DNA of 57,148 bases, from assembly GCF_003334255.1 (NCBI RefSeq), contig NZ_QOWU01000032.1. One strand, given 5' to 3'. This document shows, one piece after another, positions 1 to 1,390 of the stretch. The notes beneath the pieces were generated by a model. It was not told the origin of the DNA and made no database searches. It worked only from the letters and a program-made list of their open reading frames with translations. How positions within the stretch are numbered: position 1 is the first letter of the stretch; the number at the start of each line of letters is the position of its first letter. A program made the translations under genes and the position numbers. The stretch is from Escherichia coli. Its GTDB lineage: Bacteria; Pseudomonadota; Gammaproteobacteria; Enterobacterales; Enterobacteriaceae.

Positions 1-64
1 ACGCGAGGCATCGTCTTAACGAGGCACCGAGGCGTCGCATTCTTCAGATGGTTCAACCCTTAAG

Positions 65-667
65 TTAGCGCTTATGGGGATCCTCCCCGCCATTGGCAAA
101 CCAGCTTGCGGCAAGGCGCTGTTTTTCTTTCATCTGACGTTGCAGGCTATCGTCGGTGATCAGCCGTAACGCCTGATTCGGGCAAGCGCGAACGCAGGCC
201 GGACCTTCTGGCAAGAAATCACACAGGTCGCATTTCACCGCGACGGTCTGGACACCAGGTTCCCAGCGCAGCAACGCATGTTGGGGCAGCACGTTTTCTT
301 CGCCGTTTTTGAGTGAGCCTTCAGCCTGAAAAACATATTGCGCATGGGCATTCACCGGACGGCTTCCTGAAGCGCTGATTGCGCCAAATGGGCAGACCAC
401 GGCGCAAAGCTTGCAGCCAATACAGAGGCTTTCGTTGAGTTGGATCGCATCATCCCTCTGAGAGATGGCATTGACCGGGCAGACCTGCAGGCAAGGGGCT
501 TCCTCACAGTGATGACACACGACAGGGGCAGTGATTGTTGACGTCTTCGCCAGGGCCAGGCGCGGGTGTTGCTGTAAACCTTGCGTTTTATGCACGTCCG
601 AACAGGCAGCGAGACAGGTATTACATCCTGTACACCACAGTGGTTCGGCCACCACAAAGCGGTTCAT
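65..667 (-). CDS. hyfA: Hydrogenase-4 component A, 4Fe-4S ferredoxin-type subunit
   Basis: Translation has multiple CxxCxxCxxxCP ferredoxin motifs and matches my memory of HyfA (MNRFVVAEPLWCTGCNTC...). The ATG at 665-667 is preceded by AAGGAG; the ORF-track start at 706 is probably an over-extension. Confidence 0.85.
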   Translation of the reverse strand: MNRFVVAEPLWCTGCNTCLAACSDVHKTQGLQQHPRLALAKTSTITAPVVCHHCEEAPCLQVCPVNAISQRDDAIQLNESLCIGCKLCAVVCPFGAISASGSRPVNAHAQYVFQAEGSLKNGEENVLPQHALLRWEPGVQTVAVKCDLCDFLPEGPACVRACPNQALRLITDDSLQRQMKEKQRLAASWFANGGEDPHKR

Positions 668-719
668 GTCGGCTCCTTGAAAATGATATGAAACATTGCA
701 TTTCATATTGCATAAAGGA

Positions 720-735
720 TGCCATCCTGATTAAC
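720..735 (-). promoter_or_regulatory. Putative sigma54 (-24/-12) promoter for hyfA
   Basis: Minus strand reads TGGCAT-cctttA-TGCA, giving the GG-N10-GC spacing of the TGGCAC-N5-TTGCA consensus, about 40 nt upstream of the hyfA ATG. The hyf operon is known to be sigma54-dependent. Confidence 0.5.
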
Positions 736-848
736 TCAATATATTCAATAAGTTATGTATTAACTGGATTCTGAACGGTACAAAAATGATGGTCATTAAC
801 GTTCAGCAAAAAATGGATTCGACACCCGTGTCGCAGGGGAAAGCGAGA

Positions 849-866
849 ATGTGATCTTGATCACGA
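849..866. promoter_or_regulatory. CRP-like site (TGTGA-N6-TCAC) in the bcp-hyfA intergenic region
   Basis: aaTGTGATcttgaTCACgag matches both CRP half-sites with correct spacing. Assignment to CRP rather than another regulator is inference. Confidence 0.3.
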
Positions 867-919
867 GAAGTGAGGTATGCTGGCCGCAAGCGCAGCCAGC
901 ACGGAATGGAGCAAAGTAA

Positions 920-1390
920 TCAGGCGTGTTCTTTCAGCCAGTTCAGCACAACGTCGTGGTGATTGCTGGTTTTGAAATCGTCAAAGACATGTTCGATTTT
1001 GCCATCAGCGTCAATCAGGAAGCTGATGCGATGAATGCCATCGTAGGTTTTGCCCATGAAGGACTTTTCACCCCAGACGCCGAATTGTTCGCACACCTGG
1101 TGGTCCTCATCAGACAGGAGCGTAAAGTTAAGCAGCTCTTTTTCCGCAAAACGGGAGAGTTTTTCGGGTTTATCGGTGCTGATACCCAGCACATCAACGC
1201 CCGCTTTTTTCAACTCATCCATGTTATCGCGTAAGCCGCAGGCCTGTACGGTACAGCCGGGGGTCATGGCTTTCGGGTAGAAATAAACCAGAACACGCTG
1301 TCCCTGGAAGTCGGTCAAATTAACTTGTTCTCCGTCTTGATCCGGCAAGCTAAATTTCGGTGCGATATCACCGGCTTTCAGTGGATTCAT
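920..1390 (-). CDS. bcp: Thiol peroxidase / peroxiredoxin Bcp
   Basis: 156-aa translation (MNPLKAGDIAPKFSLPDQDGEQVNLTDF...) with the peroxiredoxin active-site context PGCT; matches Bcp from memory. Confidence 0.95.
   Translation of the reverse strand: MNPLKAGDIAPKFSLPDQDGEQVNLTDFQGQRVLVYFYPKAMTPGCTVQACGLRDNMDELKKAGVDVLGISTDKPEKLSRFAEKELLNFTLLSDEDHQVCEQFGVWGEKSFMGKTYDGIHRISFLIDADGKIEHVFDDFKTSNHHDVVLNWLKEHA

Follow-up and report, generated by a model that had tools for sequence, protein, structure and literature searches.

Control elements in the bcp-hyfA spacer of an Escherichia coli genome: a sigma54 promoter, a candidate FhlA/HyfR dyad, an IHF-like site and a CRP site

The closest described system is the promoter hyfAp of Escherichia coli K-12, which is sigma54-dependent, activated by FhlA and HyfR, and a target of CRP. 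Skibinski et al. in 2002 reportedly mapped the hyf transcription start 30 nt upstream of the gene by primer extension, found hyf expression to be dependent on sigma54, FhlA and HyfR, and observed binding of HyfR to a hyf promoter fragment. Self et al. in 2004 are said to have found a CRP-cAMP requirement for hyf expression. Next to hyfAp stand the FhlA-dependent promoters of fdhF, hydN-hypF, hycA and hypA. They have the -24/-12 element in common with hyfA, and the DNA-binding domains of the activators are nearly identical. The locus analyzed here is the same as K-12 hyfAp, and both the 17-mer spanning the -24/-12 element and the 16-mer of the CRP site are identical. It differs from K-12 by an insertion sequence, IS421, that cuts hyfA short and lies between it and hyfB.

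We analyzed a stretch of 57,148 nt of E. coli DNA, referred to below as the window. The bcp-hyfA spacer corresponds to window positions 668-919 and belongs to the E. coli chromosome. In the first 6 kb, the minus strand carries hyfA (667 to 65), bcp (1390 to 920) and gcvR in this order, and the plus-strand genes dapA, bamC, purC and ypfJ follow gcvR. A megablast search with the window finds matches in all 5,426 complete E. coli genomes. Window positions 600-960 align with K-12 MG1655 with one difference in 361 nt, a G in the window for an A in K-12 immediately 5' of the promoter 17-mer, and every element is unchanged. The downstream gene had been called hyfA in the preliminary description. Annotation of the matching genomes confirms this name, and published data on the identical K-12 sequence establish the identity of the gene. 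Its ATG at 667 is preceded by a Shine-Dalgarno sequence, also as described. The region is the control region of the hyf (hydrogenase-4 / formate hydrogenlyase-2) operon, previously characterised in E. coli. The coordinates of all features are summarized in Table 1.

Table 1. Features in and around the bcp-hyfA spacer, in window coordinates. Centres are given relative to the predicted transcription start.
Feature	Position	Strand	Basis and remarks
hyfA CDS	65..667	-	ORF list, annotation, K-12 alignment; last codons replaced by the IS421 end
hyfA Shine-Dalgarno, AAGGAG	673..678	-	sequence; 5 nt before ATG (667-665); invariant in Citrobacter
sigma54 promoter, TGGCAT-CCTTT-ATGCA	709..724	-	GG 723-722, GC 711-710; TGGCAT 724-719, ATGCA 713-709
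IHF-like site, TAACTTATTGAAT	743..755	-	8 of 9 specified positions of YAANNNNTTGATW (reverse of WATCAANNNNTTR); centre about -51
Conserved block, TGACCATCATTTTTGT	780..795	-	alignment; centre about -90
Candidate FhlA/HyfR UAS, CGACA-CCCG-TGTCG	820..833	.	exact CGWCA-N4-TGWCG; centre -128.5
CRP site, TGTGA-TCTTGA-TCACg	850..865	.	sequence; identical ChIP-seq 16-mer; centre -159.5
Stable stem-loop	877..902	-	fold -20.9 kcal/mol, z = -4.4; 18 nt after bcp stop (920-922)

The preliminary description had proposed layered control of hyfA by a sigma54 promoter, a palindrome at enhancer distance and a CRP site. This interpretation is supported overall; the finding is correct, but ordinary and already known. 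A sigma54 promoter, an FhlA/HyfR dyad, an IHF-type bend and CRP very probably make up the control layout of hyf. The sigma54 element TGGCAT-N5-ATGCA with its GG-N10-GC spacing is indeed present on the minus strand, but it occupies 709-724 and not 720-735. The earlier coordinates are about 11 nt off, and the true site still falls within the region of 707-919 that had been outlined. Its 3' end lies 42 nt upstream of position 667, in agreement with the distance of about 40 nt to the ATG given before. Membership in the sigma54 class was defined by GG and GC 10 bp apart within TGGCAC-N5-TTGCW. The sequence TGGCATCCTTTATGCA (724-709, minus strand) has one mismatch to TGGCAY-N5-TTGCW, with GG and GC exactly 10 bp apart. 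With the published RpoN weight matrix the site scores 12.0 bits and ranks 7 among 114,266 window positions. Consensus matching alone gives no significance to either the sigma54 or the CRP site. When up to one mismatch is allowed, the sigma54 pattern has 3 matches in the window versus 6.5 expected, and the CRP pattern has 4 versus 1.7 expected. The support for both sites comes from their position, their conservation and published binding data.

For the promoter, the motif OS23 assigned to hyfA by sigma54 ChIP-seq in MG1655, with a fold-above-threshold of 16, equals the 17-mer ATGGCATCCTTTATGCA (PMC4591121). OS23 is flagged as experimentally confirmed in EcoCyc, and its predicted start is 31 nt before hyfA (PMC4591121), which corresponds to about position 698 (697-698) of the window. 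In genomic SELEX with RpoN holoenzyme alone, the bcp-hyfA spacer reaches 92% of the top peak, and with NtrC added it is itself the top peak, 100% (PMC8743547). Sigma54 binding is established by these published data on the identical K-12 sequence, and the identity of the 17-mer with the K-12 bound site indicates that the element would be occupied in this strain as well. The promoter is also conserved. In four Citrobacter genomes it reads TGGCATCCTTTGTGCA (TGGCATCCTTTrTGCA) and has the same distance to hyfA as in E. coli; Kosakonia conserves the -24/-12 element at the E. coli distance, too. Of the 43 hyfA-homologue loci that were scored, 32 have strong -24/-12 elements, and for hyfA homologues of other genomes they are mostly found 54-99 nt before the start codon. 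Two other sequences, AGGCGCGGGTGTTGCT and CGGCGCAAAGCTTGCA, on the plus strand at 558-573 and 400-415 inside hyfA, have RpoN-matrix scores equal to or higher than that of the real promoter. They are antisense to hyfA, have an incomplete TGGCA core and probably match by chance.

Upstream of the promoter, the stretch that separates the palindrome from the -24 element is A/T-rich, as stated before, with a GC content of 20-37% across 710-809. A putative IHF site lies between enhancer and promoter, where ATTCAATAAGTTA at 743-755 agrees with the consensus WATCAANNNNTTR at 8 of the 9 specified positions. An IHF-like motif with zero or one mismatch is found 26-27 bp upstream of GG in Escherichia, Citrobacter, Kosakonia, Morganella, Providencia and Pectobacterium. 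This fixed position fits the usual layout of activator, IHF bend and sigma54 promoter, and 743-755 most likely is an IHF-type bend site. Farther upstream, the block at 780-795 (TGACCATCAyTTTTGT) is near-invariant in Escherichia, Citrobacter and Kosakonia, with a single T/C position. It is invariant among divergent E. coli and is more conserved than any of the assigned sites.

The CRP site TGTGATCTTGATCACG at 850-865 matches TGTGA-N6-TCACA at 9 of 10 positions, so the half-sites noted before are present. In ETEC H10407, CRP ChIP-seq assigns to hyfA a high-confidence site whose 16-mer equals that of the window on the hyfA strand, CGTGATCAAGATCACA (PMC4287617), and genomic SELEX has recovered hyfA as one of the known CRP targets (PMC3105977). 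CRP binding is established by the published data on the identical ETEC sequence, and the identity of the 16-mer argues that CRP would bind it in vivo in this strain too. The proposal of catabolite input is supported by the published ChIP-seq and the known-target listing. In Citrobacter, where the synteny gcvR-bcp-hyfA is as in E. coli, the half-sites are conserved and form a perfect TGTGA-N6-TCACA around a different spacer. Kosakonia has the variant TTTGA-N6-TCACA at this position. Selection on a protein site would be expected to leave such fixed half-sites with a variable spacer. We also considered FNR and rejected it. The sequences TTAATGACCATCAT and GTGATCAAGATCAC both agree with TTGAT-N4-ATCAA at 8 of 10 positions, and the left half of TTAATGACCATCAT is not conserved; a predicted FNR site at hyfA has been reported as unoccupied in vivo.

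The centre of the CRP site at -159.5 from the sigma54 start fits none of the standard class I/II distances (-41.5, -61.5 and -92.5). The centres of the CRP site and the dyad (857.5 and 826.5) are 31 bp apart in Escherichia, two Citrobacter lineages and Kosakonia, and the sequence of the 16-nt spacer between the two sites differs. Since 31 bp is three helical turns, CRP and the dyad would be on the same face of the DNA. Only tentatively, then, might the CRP site and the FhlA/HyfR dyad form one composite enhancer, and a 16-nt spacer easily stays free of indels by chance among related genera, which makes this evidence weak. If the composite enhancer is real, CRP would act positively on the sigma54 promoter from about -160, aiding assembly or binding of the enhancer-binding protein by a DNA bend or by direct contact, and this mode would be outside the standard CRP activation classes.

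Another possibility is that CRP serves mainly a separate, weak sigma70 promoter (ATGACC-17-CAGAAT, start near 761) in a class-I-like manner. RpoD-holoenzyme SELEX reports this promoter as a predicted constitutive one in the bcp-hyfA spacer (PMC3946193). Its -35/-10 pair overlaps the block at 780-795, with the -35-like TGACC inside the near-invariant sequence. The CRP centre would be at about -96 from the putative start, close to the common -92.5 class, but this spacing is 3-4 bp off the usual helical phase. Moreover, a simple sigma70 scan of 500-1100 finds zero promoter-like sites, and neither Citrobacter nor Kosakonia has kept the proposed -10. Expression of hyf reportedly depends on sigma54, which also counts against this proposal. 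We consider it unlikely and keep the reading in which CRP would add its control to the sigma54 promoter.

The palindrome described at 820-833, CGACACCCGTGTCG, is present there, but instead of a full 14-bp palindrome it is a 6-bp inverted repeat with a non-symmetric CC centre. This and the coordinates of the -24/-12 element are the only errors in the preliminary description. The repeat does lie at enhancer distance, its centre (826.5) being 104 bp upstream of GG. Its proposed role as a candidate activator UAS gains support from the dyad it shares with fdhF, hydN and hyfA homologues of other genera. The MG1655 regulatory regions used for comparison were those of hycA/hypA, fdhF and hydN. Exact CGWCA-N4-TGWCG is found in the upstream regions of hyfA (CGACAcgggTGTCG), fdhF (CGTCAaaacTGACG) and hydN (CGTCActagTGTCG), while the hyc-hyp region has no exact CGWCA-N4-TGWCG. 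In the 57-kb window, 820-833 is the only exact match. At least 7 genera besides Escherichia also have the dyad upstream of their sigma54-driven hyfA homologues. The arm hexamer CGWCAC/GTGWCG is more widespread, being found upstream of hyfA, fdhF, hydN, hyc-hyp and most hyfA homologues. In loci of other genera, exact dyads number 22 in 7,264 upstream positions versus 0 in 64,545 coding control positions, and the arm hexamer is enriched 5.6-fold over coding controls (p = 1.4e-8, one locus per genus); these enrichment figures are partly post hoc because the dyad was defined after the sequences had been seen, which is mitigated by a spacing control where, of N0 to N8, N4 is found in 6 of 13 genera and each other spacing in 0 of 13. 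Without degeneracy, any single exact-arm dyad is present in only 2 of the 13 genera, which makes the A/T degeneracy at position 3 of the arm necessary.

The position of the dyad is conserved as well. Its centre is about 102-105 bp from GG in Escherichia, Citrobacter, Kosakonia and Atlantibacter. In Citrobacter and Kosakonia one arm is invariant and the promoter-proximal arm reads TGCCG, one mismatch to the dyad. Footprinting within the genus was based on divergent E. coli genomes, the related-locus retrieval having returned no Escherichia species besides E. coli, and the dyad is invariant among them. The C-terminal helix-turn-helix regions of FhlA and HyfR are nearly identical (KRTTLLSRM.RLGI), suggesting that both proteins could read one dyad. 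From these sequence comparisons, the dyad at 820-833 is most likely a site for FhlA and/or HyfR.

Two published descriptors of FhlA sites were tried and rejected as discriminators. The consensus CATTTCGTACGAAATG (quoted in PMC4987338) has its best match in the hyfA spacer at 10 of 16 positions, and the best that the accepted UAS regions achieve is 9 of 16; with no region above 9-10 of 16, accepted ones included, it is uninformative. The FhlA weight matrix (PMC7658346) gives the dyad 5.0 bits and rank 463 in the window. With this matrix the CRP site outranks the dyad, yet the accepted enhancers of fdhF and hydN are missed as well; these and the hyc-hyp enhancers do no better, mostly under 9 bits.

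The FhlA/HyfR site could instead be elsewhere in the spacer, in the block at 780-795 or in the CRP-like palindrome, with the dyad bound otherwise or not at all. The CRP-like palindrome TGATCAAGATCACA is the best match of the spacer to the FhlA matrix (9.9 bits versus 5.0 for the dyad), yet the matrix is poor on accepted FhlA enhancers and 850-865 is bound by CRP in vivo. The block is the most conserved stretch and resembles ATGACATCGTTTTT, which adjoins the hydN dyad, and enhancer-binding proteins usually occupy at least two sites. The block, however, is confined to three related genera, and of the two only the dyad reappears at fdhF, at hydN and in distant genera. A site away from the dyad is improbable. 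That 820-833 acts as an intrinsic bcp terminator, a minus-strand hairpin followed by AAUCCAUUUUUU, is highly improbable and the palindrome lacks credibility as a terminator: a T-run comes after it, its position is downstream of bcp and a consensus scan lists it as the one terminator-like site on the minus strand, but the RNA fold of 800-845 is weak (-7 kcal/mol, z = +0.36 versus shuffles) and leaves the palindrome stem unused, the U-run begins 6 nt past the stem, Citrobacter and Kosakonia keep CGACAC...TGCCG, where the hairpin is impossible and the T-run is lost, the bcp stop codon already has a much stronger hairpin after it (877-902, -20.9 kcal/mol), and Rfam gives zero matches on window 600-1000.

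The stem-loop at 877-902 has no U-run and is kept in E. coli genomes that do not have hyf. In Citrobacter this position is taken by a different hairpin rich in GC. The E. coli stem-loop is probably a bcp 3'-end or terminator structure, outside the control of hyf.

Taken with the dyad as the activator site, the elements suggest the following mechanism. Sigma54 RNA polymerase would sit as a closed complex on 709-724. Transcription would start at about 698, some 31 nt before hyfA, only after remodelling by an ATP-hydrolysing enhancer-binding protein. This activator would be FhlA and/or its paralogue HyfR, most likely bound to CGACA-N4-TGTCG at 820-833, with GG 104 bp downstream. The activator is most likely looped to the polymerase by an IHF-type bend at 743-755. 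From 850-865, three turns of the helix farther upstream than the dyad, CRP-cAMP would add catabolite control.

Natural variants are found in both the promoter and the operon. Window positions 1-75 are the end of an IS4-like element, IS421, which replaces the last codons of hyfA (3' end at 65-76) and separates hyfA from hyfB. In a matching genome, that of strain G1/2, hyfB is annotated as frameshifted, and the IS421-hyfA junction is found in 44 of the 5,426 complete E. coli genomes. With this disruption, an intact promoter would drive a disrupted operon in this strain. In O157:H7 (strain 86-24 was compared), the -24 element is CTGACAT for CTGGCAT, a GG-to-GA change at window position 722. The exact 51-mer of the O157:H7 type is present in at least 139 genomes. 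Judged from the sequence, this change should inactivate the O157:H7 sigma54 promoter. About a fifth of the E. coli genomes (approximately 1,127 of 5,426) are without hyfA-focB, and convergent yfgO is then the immediate neighbour of bcp. The spacer of these genomes resembles a decayed version of the enhancer region at about 800-865 (CAACACTCGTTTAA...TTTTTTCGCTGAAG), and the CRP site is absent. GCTGAA at both ends suggests that hyf may have been deleted by microhomology. The IS421 disruption, the GG-to-GA change of O157:H7 and the loss of hyf bear on the silence of hydrogenase-4 in many strains.

The analysis re-identifies a textbook layout of a sigma54 operon and adds little new biology. Its practical value is in annotation, with the elements fixed to exact coordinates. 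Mildly new are the dyad descriptor, the fixed 31-bp spacing of CRP site and dyad, which has low evidential weight, and the natural variants of promoter and operon. At the loci tested here, CGWCA-N4-TGWCG performs better than the published consensus and matrix for FhlA/HyfR-type enhancers across genera.

Compared with the formate regulon, hyfA has a single exact dyad plus a CRP site 31 bp further upstream. At fdhF and hydN, CGWCA-N4-TGWCG is 70-105 bp from GG, as in hyfA. In the fdhF enhancer, a CRP-like dyad, CGTGATGGCTGTCACG (2 mismatches, minus strand), is centred 33 bp upstream of CGTCAaaacTGACG, and this arrangement resembles that of hyfA. The hyc-hyp region, unlike hyfA with its exact dyad, has clustered TGTCG/CGACA repeats. 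The IHF-like site of hyfA is at -27 from GG, and an equally good one is not found at this position in hyc, hyp and hydN. The hyf/FHL-2 promoters of Citrobacter, Kosakonia, Atlantibacter, Morganella, Providencia, Dickeya, Pectobacterium and Sodalis combine a sigma54 element with one or two upstream dyads (exact or with one mismatch), and most of the promoters from these other Enterobacterales carry an IHF-like motif. The number and distance of the dyads vary among them. The CRP site is confined to the bcp-linked loci of Escherichia and Citrobacter, with the TTTGA variant in Kosakonia.
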